This document shows positions 13,517 through 48,052 of a stretch of 64,000 nucleotides of DNA, piece by piece. The notes under the pieces are model-generated. The model saw only the letters and a program-made list of their open reading frames with translations. It had not been told where the DNA came from and did no database searches. The translations under genes and the position numbers were made by a program. The stretch is from an uncultured virus (IMG/VR IMGVR_UViG_3300022858_001422) (taxonomy: Duplodnaviria; Heunggongvirae; Uroviricota; Caudoviricetes). Position 1 is the first letter of the stretch, and each line of letters opens with the position of its first letter. The stretch lies in the IMG/VR virus record IMGVR_UViG_3300022858_001422; one strand, 5' to 3'.

Positions 13517-13592
13517 TATTCTCCTTTAAAAACATATGAAATAACTCTTTTGTGATGTTTTTCAAAAAATTATTCTTGATCATTCATTATGT

Positions 13593-16500
13593 TCAATTTT
13601 TTAGATTTTTGATAATCTCAATATCTCTAGCAAGTTTAATATTTTGTGTTTCGATGACAGTATTTAATTCTGTCAAGTCTTGTTCGTGGCAATCACGCTC
13701 TTCTGTGAGATTATTAGTATTGGTACGATGTATAATTTTATGTATTTCGATGATTGCATTCTGAAATTCAATACGTTTCTGTGCTTGATTATATATATCC
13801 GCAATGTTTTTGTATGCTTTCTGAAGTTTTATATACTCCGTATTCTGCCATTCACAAGTGTTTTTGTATTCATCCCGCTCTTTTTTTAAATCTTTAACTT
13901 GTTTCCATAAAAATCCATTATTTTTCATTTTATTTCCTTTATTTTACCACAATATATTTGCTGAACCACTCCATATACCAGTTCTTTTTAATTGAAACTT
14001 TCTCCATGGAATGACTGTAGAACTGGTTTTATAGAGAGAATATTTCGTGTAATCAGATAGCAGTTTTTTTACATATACATTACATAAATTATATGATGAT
14101 ATAGTATACATTTATTTCTCCCTTTATTTTGCTACAAAAATAGTTGTTTTGTTTGTAATTCAACTGTCCGAAATTATCGGACAACTCGTTTTGAACTATT
14201 CGGTATTTCCGAACAGTTCAATCAATCACATAAAATTAGTTTTTTTATGATGTTTTTATAAATATTTGTGAGTATTCAACAATTGTTCGATATTTTTCTT
14301 GTTACGCTTTGTATCTGCCAAAACATAATCGCCATTTTCAAGTGATAAATGCTTATATTTATCTAGACTAACTGAGACAATGTATTTTATGTTGACTGCC
14401 ACAATGTTTGTTTCGGTTGAATCTTCAACATCAAATTCTAAAAATTGATCTTTATTCATTGTTTTTCTCCTATCGAAACACTTCCTTCTAATTTACATTC
14501 AATGTCTTCGATCAATTCATTCATTCCGTTTAACATAAGCCATTTTTTATCTTTTTCTTTTACTTTATAATCTAGAAATTTAATAATTTGTCTAATATTT
14601 TTTAAAGAATGAAGAAGATTTCCGAAATCATAAGATAATTCATTAATATTACCAAATTTTTCAACGTATGCTGTTTTAATGATATTTTCAATACCTTCTT
14701 TATCTGAAATATACATTTCTTCTAATTTTTCAAGAGACCCTCTAGGAGTATAATTTTTTTCCCATCGTTTTCCAAACAGGTATTTTCCAAACGCTTTTGC
14801 ATAACGAATCCCGCTATGTGTTGAGTTAGACCACTCTTTTTTTATATCATATCTGTCTAAACTATTGAAAGTAAATCCTATTTTTTTCATGTATTCAGAT
14901 AAAATAAATTTTCGAGCAAGTTCTTGATTATACTGGTAGAATGTTTTTTTGTCTTTATTGCTATAGTTTCTTTCACTAATTCCAGCCAAAAACATGTTTA
15001 CAATATATGGATTATTTTTGCTGCTATCTTTTATATTGACAATGCTTACTTCGATAGGTTCACTAATAATTTGAACTTGTTTATAAATTGAATTCCAGGT
15101 GTGAATGAATTTTTTATATGTATATTCTTCATCAATATTATCACCCCAATGAGGAGTACCATACTCATCACAGTATACAACAGGTTGTAACAAATCATGT
15201 TTCTGAGATTCATAATCTTTCACAGAAAGTTTATTTTCATTTTCATCCTGATAATAATTTATAAATTTACTAATGGTGACTAATCTAACATCGTTTTCAT
15301 TTTCAACAGGAATATTCTTATAGCTATAATTTGCATCAACTACTACAATTTCATCGTCAATTTTATATGTTCCAGAACCCAATGAAATATATTTAATGTT
15401 ATCATCTATAATTGTAACATCTTTACTCATTCTTACTCCTTATATTTTACCACAGAAATATAGTTTTTGGTGGTAAAAAAAACAAATATTATTTATTCCA
15501 TCTCTCTGAGTCGTTTTGCAACAGATACAAGACGGGCAGCTTCTTTTGCATTATCTTCGATAAATGATTCTAAAATTTCAATGTGAGCATCCAGGCTTTC
15601 GTTCAGTTCTTCCATCTCTGCAAGTTCGTGTTCAAGTTGTTTGATTCGTTTTCTCCGCATCATTCCTCTCCTTCAATCCAAGGCGCGTTCGGCCATGGGT
15701 CTCCCGTTACTTTCGCGTCTGAAAGTAAATCATGGGATTCCATAGCTTCCTTTTCTGTTTCACGATATTGTGATTTATAACCGCAGGTGCATTCGAAACA
15801 ATATCCATAAACCTCTTTGGATAGGCGGAGATCTTTACCGCAGTTAGGAAAAGGACACTGGATTGGTTTTTCTGCTTCTAGCTGTGCAATTCTAGCAGTC
15901 AACTTGTCGAATTCTGCGATGATGTCTTTTTCGTAATCGTCGGTTTGTTCTTTATACATCTGATAATTATCATAATTATCATTATTATCATCATACATTT
16001 GCCAATGTTGTGATGCTGAAATCAAATAAAATACTTTTAACTTAAATTCGTTTCTGTTCACTTTGTCTTCCTTTTATAGTGTCCCTTAATTTAGTTCATA
16101 TTTACACAACGTCATGGGACATTAGAGTTAACTTTGTGTAAATTGAAGTGTATAATCTACTATACACTACGTTTTGAAGTGTAATATTTTTAGCTGTTTT
16201 TAATACACTTCGTTTTAATGTTTATTAAAACTGCCTTCTGTGTTGAATAACTGTAAATATTCTATGGTTGGATGACGCAAAATATTTATTTTTCATTTTT
16301 ACATTCCTTTTATAATCACATAAAATTAGCCTTTTATGTTGTTTTTATTCCTTAAGTTTCTTGATAAAAAATATAATCTTAATTTTTATACCACTATAAA
16401 AGTCTTCAAATCTATAAGCAATTTTTTCAAAATTTCCATTAAAAAGATTTTCACCAAAAATTTTAATGCAATACATAGTTGCAAATCCCATTAATTCATA

Positions 16501-19500
16501 AATAAACGGTGAACATACTAGCCACCAAGACCAGTCAACTGCATTAATTACTTTCAAAAACATAAATAAAATTCCTAGTAAAATAACTTCTACTATTTTT
16601 GTGGGATCTTTTACATCTAATTTAATTTTCATTTTTTATTCCTTTGCAAATATCACAATTGCAATCATTGATAAATTGATATTCTGGAGTAAACTCATCG
16701 CCAAGTTCGTCTGTGGTGTACTGAAATCCTGCATCTAAAGCGTTTTGGTAAGTAATAGGCTTATCGTCTAATCCAGGAAGTCTCTTAGCGTTTAGAGACA
16801 GAAAATCAGATCCAAACCATGAAGCCACTTCAACCTTTGCTTTTCCTGTTGTTTTTGCATGTACTAAAGTTACCCATTCATCAAATCTATCCTCAACAAT
16901 CCATGCTTTCATCATACCACCTCACTCCCGATGGATTGGATTGGTTCTCCGAGAACGCAGCCGAAGTCTTCTGGCACAAGCATTCCCTCTAGCGGACATT
17001 TTTCTTTTTCGCATCTGATAGCGCCTTCTGGTGCTGTCCCTTCAATGTGCCACCCATCAGCGTCTACCGAGAATCTACATTCTTCGCACCGCACCTGCCC
17101 CCACTTCTCAGCGGTAAGGCGGTCAAACTCGGCAAGCAGTTTTTCTTCAGCAACGTCTTTTTCATCGTTAGCATCTATTTTTCCGAAGTAACCGCATCCA
17201 TGAGAATAACCGATACCTTCTGCACTTTTTATTGCATTGTTCAATAATTCCTCAAATGCTTCTCTGTTCATTTTAATTTCCTCTAATCTATTTTGAATTT
17301 TTATTTTTTCAAAAACAACATAAAATCAACTTTTTATGTGGTTTTTAATGCTTAAAATTTACACCTGTAAAATCAGTTATACATTCCATAATTTTAGTAT
17401 AAGATTCCGTGAGTTCTTTCTCTTTTTCTTCATCTTCTTTTGCAATTTGAAGTGCAAAATCACAGATTAGATGACTTGCATATCCAGTAGAAATTTCATT
17501 TGTAATAAGATTTTTTCTATCTGTTGCTCGATCCCATAATCCAGGCGATTCATAAATTATCTCATTTTGTTTTAAAGTCCATTGTTTATTACTTTCACAA
17601 ATTACTTTTACTTTTTCATATAATGTTTTTTCAATCACGGGAGGTGAAGACAATTCATCTGCAAGCCAGTGCTCAACATGACCATTTTCGTTGAAACCTA
17701 AAACGTGATTTCCCCAGGTAATCAAACCATCTTTTGCAAGAGGAAATTTGACAGGTGTTTCAATAACAGGAGGTTTCGGTGCTTCTTCGCCTTCGCGCCA
17801 TTCCATTACATGAGATGGCTGGTGCGCTTTAGCCCATTCAGAGGCGTGATCAGGATTCCATGAAAAATAACAATTGTGGTTAACGCTTGCTAGCCATTCT
17901 TCAACATTGCCATCACGTAACGCCCACACACTTTCACAAATCATAAACTTCTTCAATCCCTCTTCTGCGGTCATCCACTTGCGAGCAGGTTTTGCATTAC
18001 TCTGCCAATTATCACAGGACGGAAGGGGTAGACATCTAACATCCCAAGATTTTGATTCCATTGGGAGATAACCTGCGTCTTCCATAAGATGTCTCACTGC
18101 TTTTACAGCATTGTCATCAACTTCAAAATATTCATAACCATCATATTTGTTTCCGTTTAACAATATTTTTATGTTATGTTTCATTTTTACATTCCTTTAT
18201 AATTCTTTCAATTATAATAATAATTTGTTTTCTATTAATTATGTTTGTTTCAGTAGCCTCTTGTTTTTCTTCTTTAGTTCTATCTTCTCTATGTGCACCT
18301 GCAAGATAAGAGTTAAAAACCATATTGCTTATACGTTGATTGATTTCCCATTCATCTTCTATTTTCATTTTTCCTCATTTTCAAATATCATAATTGGTTC
18401 TTCAACACCATGTCCACAACAGGCACTTGAAACGCCTTCAATATAACCTAGACAAGCATCGTATCCTTCTGGTGTTGGCATTTTCCCGCATTTGGCGCAA
18501 GGTCGGTCACGATCGGTTATATCGTTATTATCTTCATATCGCCAGACAGTATCATCAAAATAAATTACATGCCCCCTGGTGTTACTTTTTGCACTCATTC
18601 AAACCTCTCCTTATAGTAGTTTAGGCTGCTCACCGCGCAACTTCCTTACCAGCGCCCACAAACATTCGATGCACAGCCCGCCGCGCAGGTCTTTACGATA
18701 GCATAGGGTGTGACAGTTGGAACAGGGGGTGCAGGGTGATGAGGGTTTCATTCTATACTCCAATCATCTGTTCTCGGAGCTCCACAGGCAGCACAATTAC
18801 CAACGCTGTCATTTCTGGTATAACCATTGCACCAACGACACATGAATACATCCTTCGGCTTGCTCCGCTCCGTCCATTCTGTGACATATACCTTTTCAAC
18901 TACAACAGGTCTACAACGTACAACTGTTCTGTATTCATAAGAATCTGTCATAGAGTTTTCGTGTCTGTCTGTTTTTTTATTTACAACAATCCAATTGCCA
19001 TCCGGAACCTGAGAAATGCTTTTCCATAAACATTCTTTTTCATTTTCTTGAACTTTATGTATTACAAATTTCTCAGCATCACCATAATGATGATCTAAAA
19101 TTCTCTTGTCTACGGTAAACATTCCGGCATAGTCCTTGATTTCACTCATTCAAAACTCTCCTTCGTTTTCATATCCAACCCCTCCATCCAATCTAACGTG
19201 TATTCCCGCCCGAATTCCTCACACTTCATCCGCCAGGCTTGACATCGTCCGCTATAACCTCGTTCGTGGAATTCGCGGTGGCACTCTACACACAAGTATA
19301 GCAGGTTCTCCGGCTCAACAATAATTTGCACTCCTCACAAACAAAAGTGCCATTTTCTTGCTCCTCCATAGCCAGCCGACAAAACGGACACATGACATAT
19401 AACGGTTTTATTTTCTCCAAATTATCTGGAGCGAAATTGTGAGATTTTTTTTCATGACCGTCTTGATAAACCATCGGATCATCAAAAGCAACGATGATTG

Positions 19501-20164
19501 GTAAATTTCTATTTGATGGATGGATTGCAGTAATGATTCCAGTTTCTGTGGTTCTGAAGAAAGTAAAATCCACCCCTTCAGACACTACCCGAACATGGTC
19601 TCCAATCCGCAAATCTTCGAATTTTGTTTCTGACTTTGTAATATTCATTTCATTCTCCTTGTACTGTTTCCATTTTGGAAATAGTTCAGTGTCAATAATG
19701 CCTGTTATACTCACTAAACTTTATTTCTGCACACATCACAATTGCAATAATTTGTAAAATCTTCTGGGCGTAAATAATATTCACTCTGATTAGGATCATA
19801 GAGGCCCTCCTCGTCTGTGTATCTGAATCCGGCTTCTTTGGCGTTTTCATACGTGAATGGTTTATCATCTTTTTCTTGAAACCTCATAAAATTCAGATTT
19901 TATGCGATTTTCAATAGTCGTTTTAACTAATCATTCATTATGTTTTAATTTTTCAAAAAAAGCCTCTTTATTACCAGGAGCAAAATTTCTGATTCTAAAG
20001 CGTTTATTATCTAATTTTCTAAATTTTTCAATAATTTCCATCCGAATTTTTTTAATTCTTTCATCCGCAATATTTAATTTTACATCATCGCAATCATCAA
20101 AGCAAACATAAGCCCAAGAAACCGCATGTTCTAACTGGTCTAATAATTCGATAAGTTCCTTCAT
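13593..20164 (-). other. Accessory tract 1: many small hypothetical ORFs (about 45-325 aa), several with CxxC motifs
   Basis: Densely packed - strand ORFs with GGAG RBSs, no recognisable functions; punctuated by palindromic sites. Confidence 0.7.
19714..19887 (-). pseudogene. 5'-truncated paralog of 16622-16915
   Basis: MRFQEKDDKPFTYENAKEAGFRYTDEEG...CNCDVC aligns to the C-terminal half of 16622-16915. Its ATG is the arm of the palindromic site and has no RBS. Confidence 0.65.
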
Positions 20165-23428: not shown

Positions 23429-23440
23429 TACTTTCCTTTC

Positions 23441-24235
23441 TTAAGTATTATAGGGGCAGCTTTCCCGAAATCCACAAATTTGCTTGCAGAAATAGTTGTT
23501 TTTTGAACTAATATTTGGAGGCCAATCTTCTTCGTTCTTTATCTGATTTATTGTCCCCTCAAACCATTCCATTGTCTTTTGAATTTCCATTGGATCAACT
23601 TCTTTGACTACTTCAATTCCATCTCGAATAAACCAGATTCTAATATCGCTAATTTCAATATCTTTTTCTATCCAATAAATATAAGCGTAAAGTTGAAATT
23701 GATGCATGTAATTTATAATCTGTTCAGATTCAAGATTTGCTTTCTTTCGTTTCCTGGTGTTTTTCTTAAACTTAGATGTCTTGAAATCAACAAGACTATA
23801 TTTTCCGGTAGATTTTTCTCGTAGAATCAAGTCTGGTCTTGTAGTCAATTCAATATCGTTATACACGGACTTGACAGTTTTTTCTACCTCAACAACCTCA
23901 TATAGAGACAAATCAAAATCAAAATTTGAAAAGTATTCTAGTCCAGTCTCGTAATATTTCTCTCCCATACCTTTTGGAAATGTGGGTGGAAGGGAAACCA
24001 TAAAATCTTTATAATGTTCTTCGTAATATTCGACCATTTCATAAATCTGAATTTCTCCATTAAAAAACTTTTCAAGAACATCGTGAACCAATAATCCAAA
24101 ATCCGAATAGAAGTTCCCTATTCTATCCTCCGCCTCAATATAATTATATTTAAAACCTAGCGGACAAGTTTCAAAACTTGACACGCTGGAAAATGACCAG
24201 CGCATATTATCTAAAATAAATCCATATTCACTCAT
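23441..24235 (-). CDS. Cas4/RecB-like PD-(D/E)XK exonuclease
   Basis: SFSS...CP, G..VH.VLE, PD...DFKT, QFQLY, C-terminal CxxxCxxxxxC. Confidence 0.8.
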   Translation of the reverse strand: MSEYGFILDNMRWSFSSVSSFETCPLGFKYNYIEAEDRIGNFYSDFGLLVHDVLEKFFNGEIQIYEMVEYYEEHYKDFMVSLPPTFPKGMGEKYYETGLEYFSNFDFDLSLYEVVEVEKTVKSVYNDIELTTRPDLILREKSTGKYSLVDFKTSKFKKNTRKRKKANLESEQIINYMHQFQLYAYIYWIEKDIEISDIRIWFIRDGIEVVKEVDPMEIQKTMEWFEGTINQIKNEEDWPPNISSKNNYFCKQICGFRESCPYNT

Positions 24236-26673: not shown

Positions 26674-27486
26674 TTATTCTTCTCCTTCTACTGTTTCTTT
26701 AACTTCAACATCTTCAATAACTTCAGCTTCTACAATCTCATTTTCAACTAAATCTGTAAGTTTTTCAATCAATTCTTCAAGAACAGAAATATCTTTGACT
26801 CTATTAGGATTCATTGATGGCGTATATTTTTTAGCAATTTCCTCAAAACGGGGGTCTTTTCTTTTATGTAAAAGAGTATATAATGTAGTAGCTTCTTTTT
26901 GCTTTGATTTTAGTTGAGCTTTTTTATCTTCGTCGGTGTTTTTATCAGCCAGGTCTTTTTTGAATTCACTTGAAACTTCTCCAAATTCATTTGACTCTGC
27001 ACCAATCTCTTCTGCCGTATAAACCACAACGCCGCCTGTAACATCAGGACAATACAATCTTACACCACTGGTAAGAGCACGATAGAATAACATGTTTCGA
27101 GGATATTTCTTCCAAACATCTTTTCCTGATAACCCAGCCTTTTTAGCATCATCCAAAGTAAATGAAAATTCACCAACCTTCTGATCCTTTTCATAAAACG
27201 CAAGATTACATCTTTCATTATTGGTTTCCAGAATAATGTAGTTGTAATCAGGATGACGTTTTACAAGTGTTGCAACCAGATTTCCGCCTAAAGCAACCTT
27301 GTTTTTGATAATATTGATTCCAGACATTGAAGTGAATGGATCAAATCCAAGTTCGCGTCCTGCAAGAACTTTTACAGATGCTTGAGCCAAATCTTTTGTA
27401 TCTGAAAACAAACCACTTTCCATCATTACCTTCGCAATTCCGGTAACATCTTCCATACTATTAATCATCAAACTATTTTCCGTCAT
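26674..27486 (-). CDS. ssDNA-annealing recombinase (RecT/Beta-like)
   Basis: GRELGFDP, FTLDDAKKAGL..K.VWKKYPRNML.YRA....R..CPD; near exonuclease and SSB. Confidence 0.7.
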   Translation of the reverse strand: MTENSLMINSMEDVTGIAKVMMESGLFSDTKDLAQASVKVLAGRELGFDPFTSMSGINIIKNKVALGGNLVATLVKRHPDYNYIILETNNERCNLAFYEKDQKVGEFSFTLDDAKKAGLSGKDVWKKYPRNMLFYRALTSGVRLYCPDVTGGVVVYTAEEIGAESNEFGEVSSEFKKDLADKNTDEDKKAQLKSKQKEATTLYTLLHKRKDPRFEEIAKKYTPSMNPNRVKDISVLEELIEKLTDLVENEIVEAEVIEDVEVKETVEGEE

Positions 27487-29028: not shown

Positions 29029-29592
29029 TTATTACCTCCTGGTAATTATAGAGGAAGAACAATGCAGGAGCATTGTTTGTTCAGGCTTGCAAACCCTATC
29101 CTCTTTTTATATTTTCAGAACCACGTAAAATCACAGTTTTATGCGATTTTTAGGGTCGTTTTAACTAATGAATCATTATGTTTGATTTTTCATATTTTAC
29201 CAGTTTTCTTCTAAATCATAGAATTCATTCAATCTTGTCACTTCTTCCTTCCAAACATCCATATAAGAACCCATAATCACTGTTTTTTCTTCTAAATATG
29301 GTTTCCCTAGTTTTTTATTTTTCCATCCTCTTTCTTTAGCAATATAAAGAGGAATTTTCTCTTCTTCGCTCAATATATCATAATTATCAGACCCATACAT
29401 ATAAACGTACGGTTTTTCATCGTCAAACACAACAGTTAAGTCCCATACCCAGTCTTCAGCTTCTGGCTCAACAATATCATATTTTTCTATCTGATATTTT
29501 TTTGCAATATTTGCTAAAGAATGTAACAATACTCCGTAATCTCCAGTAAAATGTTCTGTTTTTATCATTTTTATATTCCTTTCAACTACTGA

Positions 29593-31018: not shown

Positions 31019-34000
31019 AAAGTCAAAAAATATTCACCCAACAATTTCAATCCATTTCTAACCTGTTCTGTTTCTTCTTTATTCCATTTGCGAAGTCCTT
31101 CATCTCTAATAATAAAATCTAAAGCCAAGATAATTTTATCACAAATTTCTTCATTGTAAGTATATTTAAAAACTCTTAATCTAGAAGCAATGAATTTTGC
31201 CATAGTTATATCAAAAGACCAGCTTTCGCTATCATCAAAACCTCTATCAATTCTTTGTTTAGAAAATTCAGGTTCTCTATCATCATCTTTATCTGTATTA
31301 GAAAAATTGATATTTGGGATTCCGAGATATTTAGGATCGTTACTCATTTTAACTCCAAGTCCTATGATTTTCTGCAACCCATTCTCCACCAGAATCATCA
31401 GATTGAATAATCCAATCTACACCGTCTGGAATTTCAACAATTTTGAATGGTGCATATTCGCCTTTATCAAGATTAAGTTCTTCAACAACTTGAATCAATG
31501 CCGGATTGTTTCTTTCGATAGAATCTATGTCAAAATACCCATCTTCTATTTCATTATCTGAAATAAGAAATTTAAGTTTTTTTGTATAATAATTAAAGCG
31601 TATCCAATCTCTATCTTTACCAGGTATCTTGTCCGATGGTTTATACGTGTATATGAGTGAATCACCTTCTAAAACAGAATCATATTCGTATCTATACAAT
31701 TTTATTTCTTTTATTTCAGCATATTTCATCAATGCTTTATCAGTTAAAAAAAACAATAAACCATCGTGAAATCTATTTATTACAATCTTCATTTTTTCTC
31801 CAATTATTTTAATAAAATTCTACATCGTTTTCATCAAATTTATCGTTCCAGTAAAGTATATTGGAATAAATATTGCTCAAACTAATTTCTGAAGAAATTT
31901 TCTTAGAAATATATGCTTTATGATATTTATAACCACGAGATGTAATATTATCAATAAGAGCAATATATTTTACTCCGCCCTCTAATATTATTTTATATGA
32001 TGAATTAGATGTCCAAATATTTTTTATTTTATCATCTGGAATATCTTTAATTAATTTTAAAAGAAATTCTCGTGATTCATCTAGTGTTTTACCGAAAACT
32101 GCAATTGTATAATCCATTTTTTATCTCCAAAAACCGCATAAAAGCACAATTTTATGTTATTTTATTATTTACTCCAAAATATTTCAAAAACTACATCAAA
32201 TCTTTTTTCATAAACTCTTTCTTTTTTAAATGCTAGTCTATAGCGAAATCCATTCATTTCATAATTAGCCATAAAAAATTTGCAATAAAAAATAAATGTT
32301 TTTAATGTTTCAACACCATTTATCTCGCCATTCTTAATGGTAAACAAATGTGAACAACTATATTTACCGGCTTTTGCAGCAGATTTAATTTCTTGATCTA
32401 TTTCTTTTTCTTGACCGTTTTGCCAATCTTTCCAATTCCCACCTGATTTAAAAGTTAAAATTTTCATATCTTTTGCAGTAATCATTATTCCATCCTTATT
32501 TTGATAAAATAAAATCAATATTATTTAACCCAAGCATCTCAAAATAATCCATTTCTTCTTCACTAAACTCAATAACTTTTCCTTCTTTTGTCCAAATGAT
32601 GTCTCTAAAATCAAGACGATTTATTGCTGTTCTAGCGTTCATAATTTCTATGGTTTCTTCAATTGAAACAGTGTTTGATCTAGATGGCATATCTTTTGGA
32701 CTTTCATATAGTTTAGTACATGTCAAATATATAGTCTTCATTTTTTTCCTTTTTAAAATCGCATAAAACTACAATTTTATGCTTTTATTTTAATTTTCGA
32801 CAGAACTTATTATGCTTATTGATAATATTTCGTTCTATCTCATAATGCATTTTATCAAGTATTTCTACACCTTTCGTCCTATATACGCAATTTGATTTCA
32901 TGCAAAATACACTCCACTCATTCAGGTCGTTATTCCATGAAGCCCTGCATTCACTACCGCAAATAGGGCACGCCTCAATCACCGGCTCTGGTGGCTCTGG
33001 AACTTCTGGCATCTGGAACTCTGACGCTGGGAGCCAGAGGACGCGCGACCACCACTCGGTGTCGGTAATGTCCGAATCTGCGCTCCAGTAAATGCTACCC
33101 GTTGGGTTGTTCTTTGCTTTCCAACGAAACCCGCCTGCCTTGTCTAACGTACACACAGACTCCCACTGTTCCACAGCCCCATCCCGCCACACAACAGATT
33201 TTGGTTCAACATACTTTTGAAGTTTTTCAACAGTGCTTTCAAAAAACCATTGATTATCATTCATGCAGTAAGGAATTTCTGGATCATTTTCTTCGACATC
33301 CATGATTTCGACAACAAATTTATCTCCAATATTGTACTTCATTTTATTTCTCCTTTTTTAAAATCTCATAAAACAACTATTTTATTCTGTTTTTATTTTT
33401 TTTCGATTAGGTCTTTTACATCACGATAAACCATAGCACAAAATAAAGAAATAGTTCCACATAATGTAAAAGCCTGGCTCCATTCATTAGATCCATTGCG
33501 AGATATAATAAAACCAAGAACAAAACAAATTATACAATATGCATGATATTTATTCATTTAAATCTCCTGTTATATTATTTTTATCTGTAACAATTGTTCC
33601 ACCTGGATGAAAATGTACACCATCTGGAATATTGAGTGGATTATTTCTATCTAACATATTTTTCACTATTGTAGAATAATCCTCGTAATTTCCTAAAACT
33701 TTTCTAGCTTTTTCCACTTCAGATGAGTGTAATCCGTTCTCATCTATAATTTTTAGCAATGTGAATATAACGTTTTTCATTTCATCTTTTTCAATAGCAA
33801 AATCCCAATTTGCTTCTTTAGCATTTTCAAGATCTGCTGGAAGATAAGGAATTCCATCAACAAGTTTATCTGCATATTGTCGAAAAGATTCTAAGGCATG
33901 ACGCAACTCGTTATTTTCTTCTTTTAAGTTATCAAATTCTTTGACAATTTTAAAAAGCTTCATTGTTTCTGTATATGTATCTTTAGCTTTACCAGAATGA

Positions 34001-37000
34001 TTCTCTAAAACTTTTACCAGTCCTATCATTTCATCATCGTGAAGAACAAGATTATCTTCTCTTTCAATAGAATTTTTCATATCTAGAATAAATATATTTA
34101 AGTTATTTTCCATTTTTATTCCACCATCCATCTTTTACCTCTATAACTGCCGTACCATAAGGTTTATCCTCAAACTCATCAAATCCACAAATTTCACCAT
34201 CAAAATAAATTTCTCCGTATTTATGGTTTCCTTCACTCGATGGATTTTCACACATTTTTGTTCCAATAAAATCTCCAGAATTCATATCTGGGCGAAAATC
34301 TGTGATTAAAAATGCAAAAGTATTGCCAATATACCATGATTCATTATTTGGTTTTACCTTATAAACAACAACTTCCTGTTTCATTTCCACTCCTTCATTA
34401 TATCATAAAATGGATATTTTATGTGAAAATTAATGCATTAAAAACAATAAATCCATAAAGCAATTAAGACACCTATAAAAAATAAAAGAAAAGACGGTGC
34501 AAAAATTATCATTCCTGTATTTCTGGTTTCTTCTTTATCAGATTCAATAAATATCAATCCAATAATTAAATTAATTATTGCTATTATAAAAAGTGTCTGT
34601 ATAAAATTCATTGTTCACTCACAATATTCACAATCTGGATTCACACATTGCCATTTTCCAGGACGAACGATCTGCATTTGTTTTCCGCAAAATCCACACC
34701 AAGCAGGTAAATCATCTTCGTCAATATATGATATGTCTTTAGATGGATAGACCAGAATTTTATTGCCAATAGACAAAACTATATCTTCTGAGAATTTATC
34801 GCAAATATAATTTTCAAGTTCTTCAATTCGTTTTTGCATCCTGTCAAATTCTTCGAGAATTGATTTTCCAATAGCTTCCACGTTTTCTTTTGCACCAGGT
34901 TTAGCCAACATTGCTTGAAAAGTTTCGTTAGCATAACTATATAATTTCGCTCTAAGTTCTTCTTTGTTCATCATTCATAATCCTGTTTGATATATTCATC
35001 GCAAATAAAATTAGCTTCTACTTTATGTTCATCCATCCAACGCGACAATTTTTTATGATGTGGCAGAGTATTCTCTCCATTATCGCTTGCCATTGCCCAA
35101 TTTGCATATAGTTTCTCGTATTCTCCACGACAACCTTTTTCACAAAAGAACTCTGGCCAGTCTAACCAATGTTCAGGCGTATGGGGATGTTTGCAATTAG
35201 CACAGCTGTTCAGTTTATGGTAATTAATTTTCATTTAGTTTATCCACCAGTCCTTTTATTATAACACCTATTTCAACACCAACAATAATCCACAAAAAAA
35301 TTGCAATCATTATTATCTCCTTCAATCAAAAATAATGAGTATTAACGTCTGGCCATAGTTCGACTTCAGCACAATCAAATAATTGAACTTTGTCACCCTT
35401 TTTTACTTCTGGTTTTGGATGCCCTGCCGGTTTGCCGTCTAGCGAAGGAATTCTTCTTACTCTGACATCTATATAATTTAACTCAGCATCACGACATACC
35501 TTGCTCTTAGCTTTGCCAGCAGTAGTTGCATATACAACTGTGCCAAATCCATCGGTTCGCCTACTAACATTCCATGCCTTCATTTCATTCTCCTAATCCA
35601 GGAACTGATATCCCGTGATTGCTACTCTGGCATTTAGTTCCTTGGAAGCCAATTTCTCGTATTCCTTAATGCATTCCGCTGTTACTTTTCTATACTTCTT
35701 ATCCGTAATGATACGACCTGATCCCCAGCAATCTTCTTTAATTTCTAGACAATAAGAAAATAAGACTCGCTTTGGCAAAATTAGCATTTCACTCTCCTTT
35801 AACTACTTCCTTTTTGGAAACTGTTCAGTGAGCATAGTCCCTCTTATGCACACTATAAAACTAATAAAATCAATGTTTTATGTGATTTATAAACTTTCTG
35901 AAATCTCTGCTATTCAATTCTTGGATGCTGAGATAATCAATTTAGTTATTACGTTATCAAGTTCTTCTTTAGCTTTTTTGACTTCTTCAGCAGCCCAATT
36001 ATATTTCTCTACATGATGAATATGATAGAACTCTTCCTGCTTTGCTCGCCAGTTTCCATATTTTATAATTAGTCCGCTAAAATATTCTTGCATACTGGCT
36101 AATCTTTGATCCATTGCTGAAAATTTATCTTCGTAGTCTAACATTTTTCAATCTTCCTTTTTTATTTCAATAAAATATAATTCCAATACTCTTTTTAATA
36201 TTGTTGTTTTCATCAAGAGACATAACATAAAAGTTAGGACGTTTATTAGATAATCCGAAAATATATTGCATTCTGTCTAAAAATTTTTCATCGTCAAGTA
36301 TTTCTTTTCCCATAAAAAACTCTTGTTTTGTCCTGGTATCAATAAGATACATCTCGTCATTTAAATTCATCAATAAATTCTTTGCTTTTTTATCACAAAT
36401 AAAAAATGTTTCTGCTTTATCGTTCCATTCCCATATCGTTTTTAACATAGATCGAACACCATCTCTTGTAAAACCAAGCAATATTAAAAAAGGTGTGCAA
36501 TGCTCTATATTAGATATAACTTCAGCAATATTTTTCATTCAAAACTCCTTTTAAAAACAACATAAAACGTGTATTTTATGTGATCTAAGCGTTTTTATCT
36601 TTCTTACCAAATAAGTGTTTCAGAAACCAGTTTAAACCTCGTGGTAACGATATTTCATTGATTGGAGGTTCAACCAAGCGCAACTTATTCAAGGTTTTTT
36701 CTGATACAAAAGCACCGTTATCCATTCTATAAGGACGATTATCATTTAAACTATCATGAGTAATTTCAAGAATAAATGCTTTATCATTCTTTTCTACTAC
36801 AAACTTTTGTCCTACTTTATATTTACACATTTAATCCTCCAGAACAGCTTGATCAATTATTTTATTCATAACATCTCTCACAAAATCTTTAGTCATAAAT
36901 TCTGTTTCTAAAGAAATCTTGCCACTTTTATCTGTGTTAAAAACAATTACACCAAACCCTTTTCCATATCCCCAATGAATACGAAAATGTTGATTTGGCG

Positions 37001-37091
37001 TTCCTCCTACATGTTCAATATAATCATGATCTTTTTTCATTCTCATACTCCTTAAAATCACATAAAATGTTGTTTTTATGCTTAAGCGCAT
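31009..37091 (-). other. Accessory tract 2a: small hypothetical ORFs
   Basis: About 20 short - strand ORFs, many separated by palindromic sites. Confidence 0.7.
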
Positions 37092-37140
37092 AAAATCTTC
37101 CTTTTATCGTATTTTGAATATATTTTATACTTACATTTCG

Positions 37141-39733: not shown

Positions 39734-40618
39734 TCAACTCCCTGGTGCTGCCTGTGCCATTAATGCACCATCTGCAATGTCTGCTCTGGCAGCTCGTAAA
39801 TATAAATTCGTAGTAGTAATATTCTCATGCCCTACAGCCTTTTGAATCTGGAATGCACTCACCTGGTTTCTAGCAAGATCACAGGCGAATGTCCTGCGCA
39901 TTGTGTGACATGAAATACCCTCAATTCGTTTCTCGTCAATACCAGCCAATCCTGCTGCCTTCTTTACACCCTGTCGGATCGCTTCAGCAGATACCTTATG
40001 CCAATGTCCTGACGAACTCCCAAATCCCTTTTGGGAACAAAACAGATATTCAAAATTAGTTCCACGTTTTTCTAAATATTCTTTGATAAGATTCTGAACA
40101 TATTCGTTGATTGCTAGAATCCGTTCTTTGTTTCCCTTACCATGGACAAGAAGTTTTCCATCGGAAATATCTTCAAGTTTGATATTGGTAACTTCTTCAC
40201 GGCGAAGTCCGGTATAAAGCAATATCGCCATGATCAATTTCAGTTTCAAATTATTGCCACAAGCAAGAATAATATTATCACGCTCATTTTGAGTCAGGAT
40301 CACAGGAATTGTTTTTGGTTCTTTGAAATTTTTGATACCTGAAGCAGAATTATTCTCAATGAATTCATTTGCAACCATCCAGTTAAAGAAAACTCGTATA
40401 ATCCGTAGTCTAGCATTAACTGTAGACGCTTTATTTTCTTTGCTCATACCGCTGAGATAATTGCGAATATCCATGGTAGAAACATCTTCAAACGATTCAA
40501 GATTAACAATATTTAAACCGTTAAAAAATGACTCCAGGTTTGAACTATAAGACCGGATTGTATGTGAGCTTTTATCGTCTTTTGCTAACTCAATAAATTT
40601 TCGATATTCTGTAAACAT
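39734..40618 (-). CDS. Tyrosine recombinase (XerC/D-like with N-terminal core-binding domain)
   Basis: TGLRREE, HGKGNKER, HTMRR, GHENITTTNLY give a complete R-K-H-R-H-Y set. AGGAG RBS before MFTEY. Confidence 0.93.
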   Translation of the reverse strand: MFTEYRKFIELAKDDKSSHTIRSYSSNLESFFNGLNIVNLESFEDVSTMDIRNYLSGMSKENKASTVNARLRIIRVFFNWMVANEFIENNSASGIKNFKEPKTIPVILTQNERDNIILACGNNLKLKLIMAILLYTGLRREEVTNIKLEDISDGKLLVHGKGNKERILAINEYVQNLIKEYLEKRGTNFEYLFCSQKGFGSSSGHWHKVSAEAIRQGVKKAAGLAGIDEKRIEGISCHTMRRTFACDLARNQVSAFQIQKAVGHENITTTNLYLRAARADIADGALMAQAAPGS

Positions 40619-40653: not shown

Positions 40654-40682
40654 ATAATAACACAAAAAGTTTATTATGTCAA
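40654..40682 (-). promoter_or_regulatory. Sigma70-type promoter of the recombinase
   Basis: TTGACA-17 nt-TATTAT with TG extension. Confidence 0.75.
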
Positions 40683-41248: not shown

Positions 41249-41917
41249 TCATAAATTTTCCTTTTCAAGATATATTCTATCAATTATTACAGGATCATTT
41301 TTCATTTTATGTCGTTCATTCAATGAAGACGCATTTACATATTTTCCGGTAAAGTCAATTCCGTAGCTTTCATGAATATGTCCAAAAACATGCAGTTTCA
41401 AATTCTTTAGCTCTTGAACTCTTTCCAATAAGGAAACACTTCCGGTTCGGATGTCAGTCCATGTTTTATCTAGTATTGAAAATGGTGCACCATGGGTAAT
41501 AAGAATGTCTGTATCATCTGGAATTTTACTATAATACTCTTTGAGAATATCGTCAGACTCCATAAACGCCCAATTTCCAAATGGTAAAGAATATGGCGAT
41601 CCGAATATCTTAAGTCCTTCAATTTCAACTGATTCGTTTACTAAAAAATAAGTGTTGTCGAACTTTTTAGAATATTTCAAAGTCTCTTTGTAGCTGAAAT
41701 CGTGATTTCCAAATGTGCACACCTTATATTTTATTGGCAATAAGTTCAACCAGTTGATAAAGCTAACACCATTATCAAAATGATTTGCTTGCAGGTCTCC
41801 AGCATACAACAACATATCTGCGCCAGAATCTATTAATTTTTGAGTAAGCTTCTTTGATTTGTGCTGCCCATGAGTATCTGAAATACAAACAATTTTCATT
41901 TTTTCTCCTTTTAGCAT
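41249..41917 (-). CDS. Metallophosphoesterase
   Basis: SDTH, AGD, GNHD, ITHG, FGHIHE. Confidence 0.9.
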   Translation of the reverse strand: MLKGEKMKIVCISDTHGQHKSKKLTQKLIDSGADMLLYAGDLQANHFDNGVSFINWLNLLPIKYKVCTFGNHDFSYKETLKYSKKFDNTYFLVNESVEIEGLKIFGSPYSLPFGNWAFMESDDILKEYYSKIPDDTDILITHGAPFSILDKTWTDIRTGSVSLLERVQELKNLKLHVFGHIHESYGIDFTGKYVNASSLNERHKMKNDPVIIDRIYLEKENL

Positions 41918-42064
41918 AAAACCATCATTTTATCAGTTTCTATAACCGCAATTAGAACAATACCAATCCCCGTTTCCATCCTGACTGAGGGGATAGTCAC
42001 ATGACGGACAACGGAACAACAAACCTTTTACAAAACTAATAATTTTATTCATTTTAAATCTCCT

Positions 42065-42397: not shown

Positions 42398-42924
42398 TCT
42401 TCTCCTTTAAATATTTTTGTAATTTCTCTTGTCCAATATGACAATACTCCTAAAAGGGTTATCGTAAAAACAATCTCTAAAATTGTCATACTGGAAAATG
42501 AATCGACAGATATTAAAAAAATCATACCCAATATAAGAGAACAGAGAATTCCTGTTATTGCAATTATACAAATTACGCATAATATGCCAAGAATAATATC
42601 TTTGATCTCTATAGAAATATTAGCTTCTATATTTTTTAAAAAATTCTTATTTAATGTGAAAAATATTGTCCCAATAATCGTTAAACATATAAGTATAATT
42701 CCTAAAATCATTTTTTATCCTTTCTAAAACATAATAAAAGCATTATTTTATGTGTTTTATCCCATATCTTTCTACGTAACACTTCTTGCACAAAAACGGC
42801 GCATTTCTTGTGATCGCACCATTATTACCATCAACCCTGATAAAAAGCTCTGAATCAGGCTTTTTAACACCACAATTCTCACATTTACCAGGACTTTTTC
42901 TAGGTTTATAGGAGTATTGTCTAC

Positions 42925-43872: not shown

Positions 43873-43901
43873 ATTTTCCTTTTTAGCATAAAAAGCTCAT
43901 T

Positions 43902-46900
43902 TTATGCTGTTTTTCTACTGTCCCAATAACGATTCCTAGAATTTTGTCTCTCTACGAGAAGTTCAGAAACCTTTTTTGTAAGTTTTTCATTTTCCTCAAG
44001 ATAATCCTGATTCATGTCTGCTACAATCTCATCTTTATATTCTTCAAATATTCGTCTACGAATTTTATCATAATCATATTTTGATTGCAGCTTACGATTA
44101 TTATAATTGCATAATCCATCAACAATTGTTTGACGAAAATTTTCCCAAGCATCTCCTTCAATCCAGTCAATTAGATTACTATAAAAATCATTTAGAACTT
44201 CATTTGTTGCTCCGTCGATCTTTCTTTTAATTTCAAAACCATAATCTTCTAGGCGTTCAACCATTTGTTCTTGTGCTTCTTCTGGTAAATCTGGGTAAAG
44301 CGGAAATCTCTCACTCATTTTTAGTCTCCTTATATTCTGGAACTAAAGCCCAAGCTAAAATATCCTGATCATCTTCCCAATAAAAAACACCGTTTGACAA
44401 TTGAAAACTACCGTTCGTTTGTCCTAGATATACACTTGGAAGAAAATAGTTTCCTTGCCTTTCTGCAAAACCTCTATCGTCCTTTTTTGACTTCACAACG
44501 ACAAAGACATTAACATAAACTTCACCTTTTGGTACAGGCGGAAGACCCTCTTCAATTTGAGTCCATTCAAAATTCATTTTTTATTCCTTAATTTTATAAC
44601 CTAAATAATCCAAATATGATTCCAGTTTCAGAAGAAATAATCAGAATGGGATAATCGCAATGATATTTGAGCAATGATTTAAGAGCATCTACAACTACAC
44701 TATTTGAAATAACTTTGTAACCATGAAAAACTCTTTTATTGTTAAATAAAGATTCAGCTATTTTTTTATCACAAAATATTTTAACTGGTTTTTCATTGTT
44801 TAATTTTTCAACAAGTTTTGCCAATAAAACACCAGATTCATTACGCCATCCATCATATGACAAATAAGTATAATCCTGAATTACCTGTCTTGTCTCCCAC
44901 AATCTTCTTTCTTCCGTAGTCATTTTTATATAATTATCTATTTCTTTTATGTAAAATTTACTCATTTTTACTTCTTTATAATATCCCAATCCTTTTGCCT
45001 CTTTCAAAGTTAACTTTCTCAATATTCTCCATTGATTACCATATCCTGTGGTTTTCAATTCTTGAAACCCGTACTTTCTTCCATTTTCTACATAAGTGTA
45101 TTCTTTAGTATAGAACTCTGGGTTTCCAACACGTTCATCTACCCAATATCTTTCTATTTTTTGACCCGATGGAATAGCATTTCGTCTTGCTTTTTCTAAT
45201 TCAAAATTCATTGTTTCTCCTTAATTATATCATAAAATTGATGTTTTATGTTGTTTTTTTTATCAAACCAATTATACTGGTGGTTCTGGAGCTTCTTCGT
45301 TTGGATAATAATATCCAACAAGCATTACGTATGTGGGCTGGTTAGAAGAATCCCATTCATTAGAGCGAAATCCGAGAGGATAACTAAGATATGAATCGCC
45401 TCCCTGCATCCATGCTATAGGATCATTTCCTGGACTCCACCCCCACACATTATCCATATAATGATATTCTTCAAGTCCTTCTTTGGCTAAAATCCATCCG
45501 TTCATAATTTTTCCTTTACTTAATACTTCTCTTGCAATACTTCCTTCGTCGTAAGTAATTCCAAACACAGAATTATTCGTATATGGAATCCCATCTTCAT
45601 TATAATGATTTTTGTCTGCGTACCATTCAAGAACTTTTACGAGATTCATAAATTTGTCAAGGATTTCAATTTCTTTATTATCAGCATTTTTCTCAATCAT
45701 CATATAGTTATCACCATCAACAGATTCAAGAACTTCTGTATGAACTAAATCGTTCTCATATTCTCGTAATAACTTCAGATCTTCCTTAATATTCATTTTT
45801 TATTTTTCCTTATAAAATAGTAATTTTATGTTGTTTTTATTGGTTTCCATCGTTTAATATTTTTTGTTTTTATTGATTTTCCATTATTATCATAAAATAT
45901 ATCCACTTCAAGAACATAAACTCCTTTAACTATTTTTTTATCAGTTGTCTCAATAATTATATTTGCATATACAAAACCATTTTCATAAATCAGGAAGTCA
46001 AGCGGTTTTTTAGGAAATTCAAACCATTTGTTGTTCAAAGAATATGAACTAAGATTCATTTTCAATCCTAGCGAAAGAAAATATCATCATTTCTTCTATA
46101 GACTCAAAATTACAAATCCCCATAGCTTCTAATTTTCCAAGCCACCTTTCTTCATAATCACTCAATTTATTTTCATGATGTATTTTCGTCTCTGCAATCC
46201 ATTTTGTAAGCCATGGACGATTAGTTTTTTCCAATAAAATATACTCGGAAATCCATTTGTATAAATCTTTTCTAATATGATATTTTTTACTCATAATACA
46301 ATCTCCTTTTATAATAAAATCGCTATTTTATGTGTTTTTCAAAATATTCAAAATCTCAAAAAATTAAACCTAATCAATCATTAGTTAAAACGACCCTAAA
46401 AATCGCATAAAATCACCATTTTATGAGATTTTGATTTTAATCCCATAAATCAACAAAATACTTTCTAAATAGGTCAAAAGCGTGATTAAATTTGATTGTT
46501 TCTTCTTTTTCTTCATCTACACCATAAATACAATCACACGCATCTTCGTAAAGAGAAAAACCTTCTGAAATTTCCTTCAAAATATTATCCCATTTTTGAA
46601 CCATCTCTTTATCTAGCATTTCATTTTCATCACCAAGTTTATAACTATCAGGATAAATAACCATTGGATGAGAAATCTTATGTTCTCTTAAATAGCCAAC
46701 AATTTCTGAGATTTGTTCTGCAAAGTAACTGTCTGCATTCCAAGATGCACGATCATCCCAGCCTCTAAAAACACGCTGCCATGCCCACTTTAGTTGTCTA
46801 CAACATTCAATAACAATTTTCCAGGGGTGAAATAAAAGGTAGTAAGAATTCCATCCTCCAAAACCATTTGGAAATATCTTATTGATAAATGTATAAAATT

Positions 46901-48052
46901 TTCGTTTAGCAAGATTTTCTTCAAATCTTTCAGAAAACGGTTTATAATCTTTTTCAGCCATTATCACTCCAATCATCAAATGAAACCCAACAGGGCTTAG
47001 TTTCACTACCCCTAAGACTGATTAGATCAATTTCTCGCAACATAAGGTCTCCATCTCTTACAGGATAGCCAGCAATATCATCTTCATTAGAATATTCGTT
47101 TGCCAATAAATAACCATTACCATCTCCCCAAAGTCTAAGAGATCCTGCATTATTATATTTATCTAAATTTTTCAGATACCATTCTTCTTCAATCTCAATA
47201 GTGATAGTTGGAAAATTATTGTCAGTCCATTTCTTTTCTGAAATTTTTGAAAGAGCCTTCATCATATCTTTAATATATTTTTCTGGAATAAAAAATACAT
47301 CACCACGTTTTGAAACAAATAACATTTTATTTTTCATCGTTCAGTTTATCCTCAATATCACTAATCATTTTATCTGTATCTGAAGGGCCATTATAATACA
47401 TGTCCATCACTTTGGCAATATCTCTAGCAATATCATCTGTTGTTGCCATTGCTATAAAGCCTTCTGTAGAATCACTCTTCATATATATAAGATTCATTTT
47501 AGATGTAAATTTTATCATAATAAAATCCTTGTTTTATGTGTTTTATTCTTGTTTATAGTTGTTCACCAGGAATTCAATCATTTTGGTGGTATTGTTTCCT
47601 TTTAGTTCATTCATAAATTCAATCATTTTCATAAATTCCCGAACACCATAAGTATTGACATCTTTCATCATCTTGTCAATTTCAACCAGATCGTCATGAA
47701 TAGGATTGAATAGTTTGCGGAATTTTTCAATTTCGGTATTCAGTTTGGGCATTTTTTCTGCCCAGTCTTCCCACATGGCATAAGACTCTTCTAGCATATC
47801 GTCTGTAACTTTCTTGAATTGTTGTTTGGCAGAAACCATAAACCCCCGATACCGAATAACTTCGTCATCCATGCATTCTACACTGGTACTAATTTCACCC
47901 ATCGCAGAATCAAAATACTTCATGATTTCTTTTTCAATAGCTGCACCATTGTCAAGTTCTTTAATTTTATTGCATAAAGACTTTGGAAGCCAAACAAGAT
48001 CTCTATCTTCAGATTTTAATTCGCTATATTTCCATTCATTTTTCTCAGTCAT
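43902..48052 (-). other. Accessory tract 2b: small hypothetical ORFs
   Basis: Short - strand ORFs separated by palindromic sites. Confidence 0.7.

Follow-up and report, generated by a model that had tools for sequence, protein, structure and literature searches.

A stretch of 64,000 nucleotides (nt) from an uncultured tailed virus (IMG/VR record IMGVR_UViG_3300022858_001422; Caudoviricetes), hereafter the window, carries between its genes a recurring palindrome, CATAAAA-N6-TTTTATG, and encodes a tyrosine recombinase within the same array. The locus raises the question of what acts on these sites: the recombinase, a regulator that docks on DNA, or the fold of a transcript. An earlier note, made from the sequence alone, had proposed an integron- or pdif-like system that acquires or swaps accessory genes, with operators for a dimeric transcription factor as its chief alternative, which we now regard as at least as likely. 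The elements are real and conserved, and constitute putative double-stranded DNA protein-binding boundary sites that lie at natural exchange junctions.

A conserved palindromic element between genes

The exact motif occurs 14 times in the window against 0.01 expected from dinucleotide-preserving shuffles. Allowing up to one mismatch raises the count to 27 (0.17 expected), the maximum in any of 100 shuffles being three. An origin by chance or base composition is rejected by these counts. A copy with a 7-nt spacer (14229) and two copies with two mismatches (40689 and 63891, these two taken on context), all found by script scan, were added to the site set, while a two-mismatch match at 36311 and matches with 5-nt spacers at 42701, 44722 and 48158 were discarded. 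The region 13530-47538, for which the earlier note had given about 30 copies, holds 27 sites, in keeping with that estimate, and the fixed 6-nt spacer with a single 7-nt exception (14229) was as described there. A logo of 28 sites reads AAAA-H-M-N-CATAAAA-N6-TTTTATG-N-K-R-TTTT, with the arms extending both ways to give a palindrome of 20-34 bp (arms of 11-13 bp, spacer of 6 bp). The starts of its four A/T tracts are spaced exactly 10 bp apart, and the upstream A tract is more conserved than the downstream T tract.

Since the window genes from about 7000 onward lie on the minus strand (composition profile and list of open reading frames, ORFs), "upstream" means higher coordinates, which corrects the earlier note. 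Its placement of the sites at gene boundaries, with a ribosome-binding site (RBS) soon after, otherwise stands. In coding sense the order is a stop codon (often a TAA that opens the left A tract or lies within CATAAAA), the site, a T-rich stretch, AAGGAG and ATG. At 19 of the 27 sites, after correction of two gaps for ORFs dropped by the gene caller, the upstream stop falls between -13 and +14 nt relative to the core, and at seven it is inside the core; the seven places at which a stop had been noted within a site were confirmed. From the end of most sites to the next start codon the distance is 13-32 nt. Site positions concentrate in two long, ORFan-rich tracts of small ORFs, where almost all gaps between the small early genes hold one; a PHROG match is missing for 53 of the 69 ORFs scanned in the window. 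Apart from the 7-nt-spacer copy at 14229, no site with at most one mismatch occurs in 2497-16318, hence none in the nucleotide-metabolism block, and none occurs in the replication block (19905-29123). The claimed absence from these two blocks holds, and for the glycosylation block (47539-63890) it is qualified only by a doubtful intragenic match at 57876.

There is no fixed -35 or -10 around the sites in the logo, and promoter-like matches in the region number 123 against 99 ± 10.7 in shuffles, i.e., there is no sigma-70-like excess. A sigma-A promoter within the site itself was rejected: TAAAAT forms when the spacer begins with T, but a conserved partner or fixed -35 is absent. None of the known RNA families matched at the sites.

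Pfam and PHROG scans place the window in a large tailed phage, whose PolIII-alpha replicase has 39% identity with its counterparts in Geobacillus virus E3 and in big Bacillus and Clostridium phages, and which also encodes a primase-helicase, a RecT-like protein, a PD-(D/E)XK exonuclease, three DNA methylases and a large glycosylation block. Its DNA was detected in 24 salt-lake metagenome runs. Megablast found no close DNA relative among phage isolate records, the best recombinase match among isolate phages is less than 30% identical, and IMG/VR scans with the recombinase alone or with the PAPS reductase gave no match. A 27-base pattern retrieved 10 loci from IMG/VR, of which four are structural-region fragments of the same or a related phage, and a pattern of 22 fixed bases retrieved seven singleton loci, two of whose contigs are G009 and G010. 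The 37-kb contig G001, one of these structural-region fragments, has five sites with at most one mismatch against none in the reversed control, four of them directly after late-gene stops; the fifth (16900) was rejected as an RBS/ATG look-alike, as was the single "site" of G005/L011, which was left out of the counts.

An alignment of 21 metagenomic recombinase homologues (41-61% identical) led to three large IMG/VR contigs. G009 (168 kb, judged 100% complete) has 40 matches with at most one mismatch and G011 (125 kb, 91% complete) has 28, with none in either control, and perfect ATAAAA-N6-TTTTAT cores number 55 and 12, respectively; G010, which duplicates a part of G009 without a difference, was left out of the counts. 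The recombinase homologues of G009 and G011 are 42% and 38% identical to that of the window, and the stop-site-RBS placement is kept; crude ORF calls put 45 of the 55 G009 sites and 40 of the 53 G011 sites between genes. Two outgroups share a DnaE-type polymerase with the window (46% in G006, 36% in G008) and have no recombinase: G006 (182 kb, 92% complete) has one motif match and no other repeated palindrome was found in it, and G008 (73% complete) has no motif match. The co-occurrence of motif and recombinase, which the earlier note had proposed as a check, is therefore seen in G009 and G011, with both lacking from G006 and G008. However, the window, G009 and G011 share about 30 genes (primase-helicase at 56-60%, ribonucleotide reductase and the glycosylation block among them), whereas G006 shares three. 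As the motif-bearing genomes form one clade, the co-occurrence may rest on a single evolutionary event. The motif is conserved and lineage-wide in one phage group.

Some copies belong to a composite element with a shared extension of about 50 nt (GAAAAATTAAACATAATGAtTGATTAGT...), found at four sites: 2430-2530 (+), 19859-19956 (-), 29126-29196 (-) and 46355-46431 (+). The copy at 46406 is inverted relative to transcription, and the copy at 2477 and its G001 counterpart share about 99% identity, against about 75% for the adjoining genes.

The position of the sites between stop codon and RBS, on the transcribed strand, would suit an element that acts as RNA, viz., an intercistronic hairpin in early polycistronic transcripts that weakly terminates or attenuates transcription, directs RNase processing or stabilizes the mRNA. 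The early RNAs of T7 and SP82 provide precedents for such a role. The region has just two canonical terminators where 6.1 are expected, and of eight sites folded as RNA (-2.1 to -11.5 kcal/mol) three clearly beat shuffles, a few copies folding well (-11.5, -8.8 and -8.2 kcal/mol, z below -3). However, the median fold energy over 36-mers of 28 sites is just -4.25 kcal/mol and 14 of the 28 are weaker than -4.2. Watson-Crick pairing at three free outer-arm positions is seen in 8, 8 and 7 of 28 sites (shuffle means 8.1, 13.9 and 9.9), which, being at or below the shuffles, means that there is no outer-arm covariation in the window. Deviations in the core arms are likewise uncompensated, with a G-U pair resulting in just two of 15 deviant copies (read from the site list). 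The inverted copy at 46406 and the better conservation of the upstream A tract than of the downstream T tract also speak against an RNA role. The sites of G009 and G011, with median folds of -3.4 and -3.35 kcal/mol, again show no arm covariation. As a positive control, the same 22 fixed bases were scanned in one genome per bacterial species; the 61 loci found, all singletons, are ordinary bidirectional terminators with a median fold energy of -14.9 kcal/mol (58 36-mers), in which the three positions pair in 43, 49 and 46 of 57 distinct matches (75-86%) and all three pair in 38. The phage sites, unlike their bacterial look-alikes, are not terminator hairpins, and we disfavour the RNA-hairpin reading as improbable. 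Since the conserved part consists of sequence-specific half-sites and not of a fold, it points to a twofold-symmetric protein that binds double-stranded DNA.

Exchange junctions in the salt-lake population

Three short metagenome contigs (L019, L020 and L021) overlap the recombinase region. L019 shows 33 differences to the window that are confined to 40806-40709. An identical block of 2,064 bp follows (40708 to 38645), then a mismatch at 38644, beyond which homology is lost. The identical block is bounded exactly by the outer edges of cores 40689 and 38645; past it, L019 has a promoter and a small ORF in place of the N6/N4 methylase gene, and homology restarts at the first base of core 37061. 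L020 has a core of the same spacer (TTGGAA) with a different upstream flank, carries an extra gene of about 190 codons between this core and the recombinase promoter, and has no second site there. The spacer of core 40689, which lies 7 nt upstream of the -35 of the recombinase promoter, is seen in three contexts, namely the window, L019/L021 and L020. Finally, L021 is without the 62-amino-acid gene 41064-41252 and site 41057, with no site left behind and with the left breakpoint inside the end of a phosphoesterase gene.

Contigs (not raw reads) of four runs were compared with the window over 29000-48000, where 19 distinct joints among at least 45 were analysed. Cores with a margin of 15 nt make up 5.9% of this region and account for 16 of the 38 endpoints; site-less gene ends with the same margin make up 8.9% and account for 11, and the other 11 fall in the remaining 85%. 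Five are core-edge endpoints, four of them exact (29649, 33386, 34423 and 42752) and one a single base inside (42734). The joints from 29649 to 37866 and from 38630 back to 30350 are complementary and, we infer, belong to one contig; in this variant the N6/N4 methylase ORF (37865-38626) replaces the Dam-like methylase (29645-30364) between sites 30364 and 29630, and both flanking sites are kept with their spacers. The sequence shared by the methylase ORF in its two contexts runs only from 4 nt before the ATG to the second base of the stop codon, and with boundaries at the RBS and the stop that move was not made in the spacers. Other variants are without exactly the PAPS-reductase ORF (42929 to 43874), without the 57-amino-acid gene following site 34404, or without everything between sites 42733 and 43887. 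The last of these (42752-43883) retains two whole sites 7 nt apart and so resembles the tandem pair 37061/37089 of the window. Several indels have one end without a site. As a side observation, the methylation repertoire of the phage varies between variants in the lake population.

The sites are clearly preferred exchange junctions, and the junction data fit more than one mechanism. Cores that persist with their spacers while either flank changes suit an exchange at the sites. However, boundaries at the exact core edge are also forced by compaction, as the stop and the RBS lie within about 10 nt of the core and a viable join of a new gene to a retained site has to fall there. Recombination of site with site, moreover, does not yield whole sites in tandem or remove a site along with its gene. 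Breakpoints at the sites, which the earlier note had expected between related phages, are seen for 16 of the 38 endpoints; the other 22 are not near cores, and the methylase boundary falls outside the spacer.

The recombinase, the spacers and what may act on the sites

The recombinase, which the earlier note had correctly recognized as complete and served by its own promoter (39734-40618; TTGACA-17-TATTAT), has 294 amino acids that form a SAM-like core-binding domain and a catalytic domain. Among NCBIfam models it scores best with XerA (165 bits, cutoff 220), XerC and XerD, in every case below the equivalog cutoff, and the integron-integrase models score far lower (TIGR02249, 92 bits against a cutoff of 265; PRK15417, 40 against 435). 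The closest solved relatives are archaeal XerA and E. coli XerD, and the alignment shows the catalytic Arg, Lys, HxxR, His and Tyr. An arm-binding domain is absent, so the enzyme should act on a simple inverted-repeat site, and no other inverted-repeat candidate was found near its gene. A strong TTGACA/TATnAT promoter precedes the gene in the window, G009 and G011, and only in the window does a site abut it. A scan of bacterial genomes, one for each of 185,579 species, returned 22 loci, none more than 33% identical over a long stretch, and matches of 41-44% identity span just 40-56 residues; no integrated form or prophage relative was found in that scan. In view of this lack of close bacterial relatives, a role as lysogeny integrase is unsupported.

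All 29 of the 6-nt spacers are distinct, as the earlier note had read them, yet uniqueness alone is at chance level (0.24 identical pairs expected; P of none, 0.79). With each spacer column shuffled among the sites as the null, pairs with at most one mismatch in either orientation number zero against 8.7 expected (0 of 4000 shuffles). This depletion also appears for the 26 intergenic sites (0 against 6.8; 0 of 4000), the dense 23 sites (0 against 5.5, P 0.003), all 29 in the same orientation only (0 against 4.8, P 0.005) and all 29 under a pooled-composition null (0 against 4.1, P 0.015). Pairs with at most two mismatches are as expected (55 against 55.2), and four control hexamers from the flanks are normal (30 against 25.1, 9 against 9.4, 13 against 8.5 and 6 against 6.5 pairs). 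The spacers are also unusually asymmetric, with no self-complementary position in 15 of the 29 (9.45 expected, P 0.015) and no palindrome among them. Since the near-identity statistic was chosen after the data had been seen, it was repeated on the relatives. In G009, with 55 spacers, identical pairs number zero against 3.4 expected (P 0.03) and pairs with at most one mismatch 37 against 45.8 (P 0.12); in G011 the latter number two against 1.8, both being small numbers. Among the 92 perfect sites of the three genomes there are no identical spacers, where about four are expected. Avoidance of near-identity is thus pronounced in the window, slight in G009 and not seen in G011, and the idea that unique spacers serve to keep sites apart gains support from the dissimilarity and asymmetry beyond chance in the window, though little from the relatives. 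Dissimilar, directional spacers are a requirement for tyrosine-recombinase sites that share one genome; single-base lox spacer mutants recombine weakly with loxP and double mutants are not known to. Counter-selection of repeats and extended palindromes could be another source of this trend in a genome with much recombination and many homing endonucleases.

On balance we tentatively prefer, as our leading but insecure reading, that the sites are dispersed operator-like elements of a putative regulator and that general short-homology recombination uses them as joints. A twofold-symmetric protein, most likely a phage regulator acting in the style of dispersed operators or "stoperators", would dock on two conserved 7-bp half-sites (CATAAAA and TTTTATG) around a free 6-bp centre with helically phased A/T tracts on either side. 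The bound protein may partition the long co-directional trains of early genes or stop read-through transcription along them. Dispersed palindromic operators have a precedent in the conserved inverted repeats to which the phiC31 repressor binds. Because the elements are the only sequence common to otherwise unrelated neighbour genes, they would serve as short homologies, at which the general recombination machinery (RecT and exonuclease) may join modules, perhaps helped by the many homing endonucleases in the relatives; the sites would thereby become places of gene gain, loss and replacement, a role proposed for the promoter-early stem-loops (PeSLs) of T4-type phages. The presence of a RecT-like protein and an exonuclease in the window supports this reading, as do the 11 of 38 endpoints at site-less gene ends, which indicate exchange at gene ends generally, and the ORF-precise events outside the spacers (methylase, PAPS reductase, and the 62-amino-acid gene with its site). 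Several observations weigh against it. None of 48 small ORFs of the window has a DNA-binding Pfam match, the only DNA-binding domains among 26 early proteins conserved between G009 and G011 come from GIY-YIG/NUMOD3 and HNH homing endonucleases, and Atlas look-ups of two highly conserved small proteins gave nothing usable on a regulator. Arms of about 13 bp, a 6-bp spacer and a recombinase in every motif-bearing genome fit a recombinase site equally well or better. An operator model predicts neither the lack of near-identical spacers nor their excess asymmetry, and a regulatory effect of the sites is purely something that we infer.

The sites may instead be the core sites of the early-expressed, Xer-like recombinase, which would mediate allelic exchange of modules between co-infecting or sister genomes; we consider this possible and hold it with reserve. 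About 50 sites per genome would carry different, asymmetric 6-bp spacers, and since such sites cannot recombine with one another, each would recombine only with its allelic copy. Two exchanges flanking a module would swap it, in a natural form of recombinase-mediated cassette exchange akin to dif-module replacement in Acinetobacter. The geometry that the earlier note had taken for a tyrosine-recombinase core site is indeed present, and arms of 11-13 bp with a 6-bp spacer match dif (11-6-11), the dif of XerA and lox (13-8-13) (PMC5357621, PMC3553980). The enzyme has XerA, XerC and XerD as its best models, a visible R-K-HxxR-H-Y signature, no arm-binding domain, no rival inverted repeat near its gene, no sign of a lysogenic role in the bacterial genome scan and a strong promoter of its own in all three genomes that bear the motif; G006 and G008 have neither motif nor recombinase. 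The spacers lack near-identical pairs (0 against 8.7) next to normal flank controls, are asymmetric in excess and are never identical among the 92 perfect sites. The 2,064-bp block of L019 runs from core edge to core edge, and the methylase swap took place between two retained, spacer-keeping sites, the same pattern as in dif modules (PMC13141974). However, binding and cleavage of the sites by this enzyme are putative, the shared occurrence may be one event in one clade, and the enzyme is just 36-42% identical across genomes with the same half-sites. The depletion of near-identical spacers fades in G009 and vanishes in G011, and avoidance of repeats and palindromes could explain the spacer statistics. 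The methylase ORF moved with boundaries at its RBS and stop, whole sites stand 7-8 nt apart (37061/37089 and the variant 42752-43883), L021 lost a gene and its site with no site remaining, 22 of 38 endpoints lie away from sites, and exact-edge boundaries are also forced by compaction. We hold with similar reserve the wider reading of a natural, genome-wide cassette-exchange system in this group of large phages, in which some 50 lox- or dif-like sites per genome would recombine only with their alleles, exchange modules cleanly and build phage mosaicism. The element could also be selfish, a REP- or MITE-like miniature palindromic repeat that invades the gaps between genes and does nothing for the phage. 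Such a repeat would account for the four-copy subfamily with its extension in both orientations (2477, 19885, 29124 and 46406) and for a copy at 2477 that is better conserved in G001 than its flanking genes. We nevertheless find it highly improbable: no two spacers are the same and they resemble one another less than expected by chance, whereas recent copying would have made them alike, the half-sites are kept across genomes with 40-60% identical proteins, the hairpin covariation needed by REP/RAYT-type elements is absent, and no such transposase was seen in the window by Pfam and PHROG scans.

Known systems resemble the element in part. One likeness is to the PeSLs (Arbiol et al. 2010, PMC2839356; Comeau et al. 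2014, PMC4122927), which as described there are repeated intergenic motifs present in tens of copies per genome, in ORFan-rich hyperplastic regions and between stop codon and Shine-Dalgarno sequence, with indels and replacements between close relatives at the motif. A PeSL as characterized in these reports, however, combines a sigma-70 promoter with a stable G/C-rich terminator hairpin over about 100 bp, whereas the element here is a 20-34-bp palindrome with sequence-specific half-sites, a free 6-bp centre, no fixed promoter and no stable hairpin, and the window phage, with its PolIII-alpha replicase and Gram-positive-type signals, is not T4-like. Cluster A mycobacteriophage stoperators likewise place tens of copies of one binding site within transcription units (PMC9283540), but they are asymmetric and bound by a monomeric repressor; the sites here are palindromic, and we recognized no repressor in the window or among the conserved early proteins of G009 and G011 and found no prophage form.

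Among recombination systems, the pdif/dif modules of Acinetobacter (XerC/XerD) are small accessory modules delimited by many Xer-type sites with 6-bp spacers, and on the account of PMC13141974 they are replaced between spacer-keeping site pairs in reactions that need identical or near-identical spacers. The pdif sites described there have distinct XerC and XerD arms, obligatorily alternate in orientation (C and D modules), use host enzymes and reside on plasmids; here, the arms are palindromic, a single candidate recombinase is encoded by a phage genome and several event boundaries lie outside the sites. Heterodimer arms with a pdif-like alternation were rejected, as the outer-arm types show none along the array, and unlike outer arms at positions -1/22 occur at 20 of 28 sites, only a marginal excess. 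Xer sites consist of two 11-bp half-sites around a 6-bp centre, and in the single-recombinase sites difH and difSL the arms end in GAAAA beside the centre (PMC5357621). The sites also recall loxP and FRT (13-8-13) and engineered heterospecific exchange, in which two inverted arms of about 13 bp flank a short asymmetric spacer that sets direction and partner, and lox-type sites with different spacers permit cassette exchange without deletion (PMC3553980). Natural Cre-type systems, unlike the roughly 50 sites here, have one site per replicon, with an 8-bp spacer. No natural phage with many heterospecific recombinase sites, and no natural genome with about 50 of them, appeared among the literature matches listed, which is not proof of absence. 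With integrons the window shares a Xer-branch tyrosine recombinase and imperfect palindromes at cassette ends, and one variant lost an ORF with its 3' site. However, the IntI model scores 92 against 265 bits, the sites span 20-34 bp and not the 57-141 bp of attC, there is no folded-strand covariation, and the recombinase lies mid-array and co-oriented with the genes. The integron- or pdif-like proposal in the earlier note is partly supported, by the site geometry, the simple Xer-like enzyme and the gene content that differs at the sites; the integrase score and the lack of hairpin covariation speak against an integron-like system, and the lack of arm alternation against pdif-like arms.

Feature coordinates, neighbouring elements and implications

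Table 1. Core sites and associated genes in the window (strand given where assigned).
Feature	Coordinates	Strand
Core site, exact; between plus-strand structural genes; in composite element of about 105 nt	2477..2496	
Core site, 7-nt spacer	14229..14249	
Core site, exact	16319..16338	
Core site, exact; near-perfect 14-bp arms	17319..17338	
Core site, exact; composite element	19885..19904	
Core site, 1 mismatch; composite element	29124..29143	
Core site, exact; downstream border of slot for Dam-like or N6/N4 methylase	29630..29649	
Core site, 1 mismatch; upstream border of slot for Dam-like or N6/N4 methylase	30364..30383	
Core site, exact	32137..32156	
Core site, exact	32762..32781	
Core site, 1 mismatch; variant joint exactly at edge 33386	33367..33386	
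Core site, exact; variant joint exactly at edge 34423	34404..34423	
Core site, 1 mismatch	35863..35882	
Core site, exact	36561..36580	
Core site, exact; tandem with 37089 (8 nt apart); L019 homology restarts at edge	37061..37080	
Core site, 1 mismatch; tandem with 37061	37089..37108	
Core site, exact; downstream border of 2,064-bp block identical in L019	38645..38664	
Core site, 1 mismatch; within 2,064-bp block identical in L019	39520..39539	
Degenerate core site, 2 mismatches; upstream border of block identical in L019	40689..40708	
Core site, 1 mismatch; missing with 62-amino-acid gene in L021	41057..41076	
Core site, 1 mismatch	41915..41934	
Core site, 1 mismatch; variant joints at both edges (42734, 42752)	42733..42752	
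Core site, exact; 7 nt from site 42733 in one variant	43887..43906	
Core site, exact	45231..45250	
Core site, 1 mismatch	45811..45830	
Core site, 1 mismatch	46313..46332	
Core site, exact; composite element, inverted relative to transcription	46406..46425	
Core site, 1 mismatch	47519..47538	
Doubtful match, 1 mismatch; inside glycosyltransferase gene	57876..57895	
Probable core site, 2 mismatches; usual stop-site-RBS context	63891..63910	
Xer-like tyrosine recombinase, 294 amino acids; core-binding and catalytic domains only	39734..40618	-
Recombinase promoter, sigma-A type, TTGACA-17-TATTAT with TG	40654..40682	-
RecT-like annealing protein; candidate for homology-driven exchange at sites	26674..27486	-
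PD-(D/E)XK exonuclease; likely RecT partner	23441..24235	-

Several mobile or RNA-based elements accompany the sites. The G+C-richer non-coding stretch 37110-37690 (-), behind a TGnTAATAT promoter, contains six T-arm-like hairpins of the GGTTCGAnTCC type and is shorter in L019; ARAGORN and Rfam made no calls in 37110-37680, its fold z-score is -1.17, and the reading frame at 37141-37515 is unlikely to be a real gene. In G011, a tRNA-like gene behind a promoter of this type directly precedes the recombinase. The class II ribonucleotide reductase gene 7489-11031 (-) is interrupted by an intein with a LAGLIDADG homing endonuclease, and tRNA genes for Ile(TAT) and Arg(TCT) at 28462-28618 (-) adjoin an HNH endonuclease gene. 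A diversity-generating retroelement comprises a template (4330-4460), variable repeats (4143-4273 and 759-889) at the 3' ends of the paralogous genes 2925-4277 and 84-899, and a reverse transcriptase (4571-5638) preceded by RT-18 RNA (4487-4564; 70 bits); the repeats differ nearly always at template adenines. A full-length match to HEARO RNA lies at 6521-6744 (+), with 109 bits against a gathering score of 83. IscB-type HNH nucleases are the usual partners of this RNA; an ORF of that kind is not evident beside it, and the 99-amino-acid ORF that follows has only a NAGPA match.

G009 (L169-L177) contains a large paralogous family of free-standing GIY-YIG/NUMOD3/HTH homing endonucleases (for example, L171:13392-14111, L172:6229-6831, L173:18489-19460 and L174:9239-10090). 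About 11 of its ORFs match one locus of G011, and there are several HNH and HNH-AP2 genes too, a load typical of virulent phages; a scan of 26 G009 ORFs gave at least five GIY-YIG/NUMOD3 and four HNH endonuclease genes. The DnaE of G011 (64185-67256, compared with 20276-23428 of the window) is 30-32% identical to that of the window, less than the 44-46% of the outgroup G006, while the primase-helicase and ribonucleotide reductase of G011 are 60% and 62% identical, which suggests replacement of the polymerase gene in one lineage.

Why the breakpoints of phage mosaics fall at gene boundaries is an old question, usually answered either by random illegitimate joins followed by selection or by short conserved boundary sequences. 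Here, a defined, over-represented element stands at the joints of a natural population, is kept across a phage group and is accompanied by a candidate enzyme, and the differing prediction for matched and mismatched spacers makes the question of mosaicism testable at the bench. If the sites are those of the recombinase, a natural multi-site heterospecific exchange system would be known from a virus for the first time, and engineering would gain a ready set of orthogonal sites. If they are the docking sites of a regulator, they would represent a non-hairpin, promoter-less counterpart of the PeSLs in phages of Gram-positive-type hosts.

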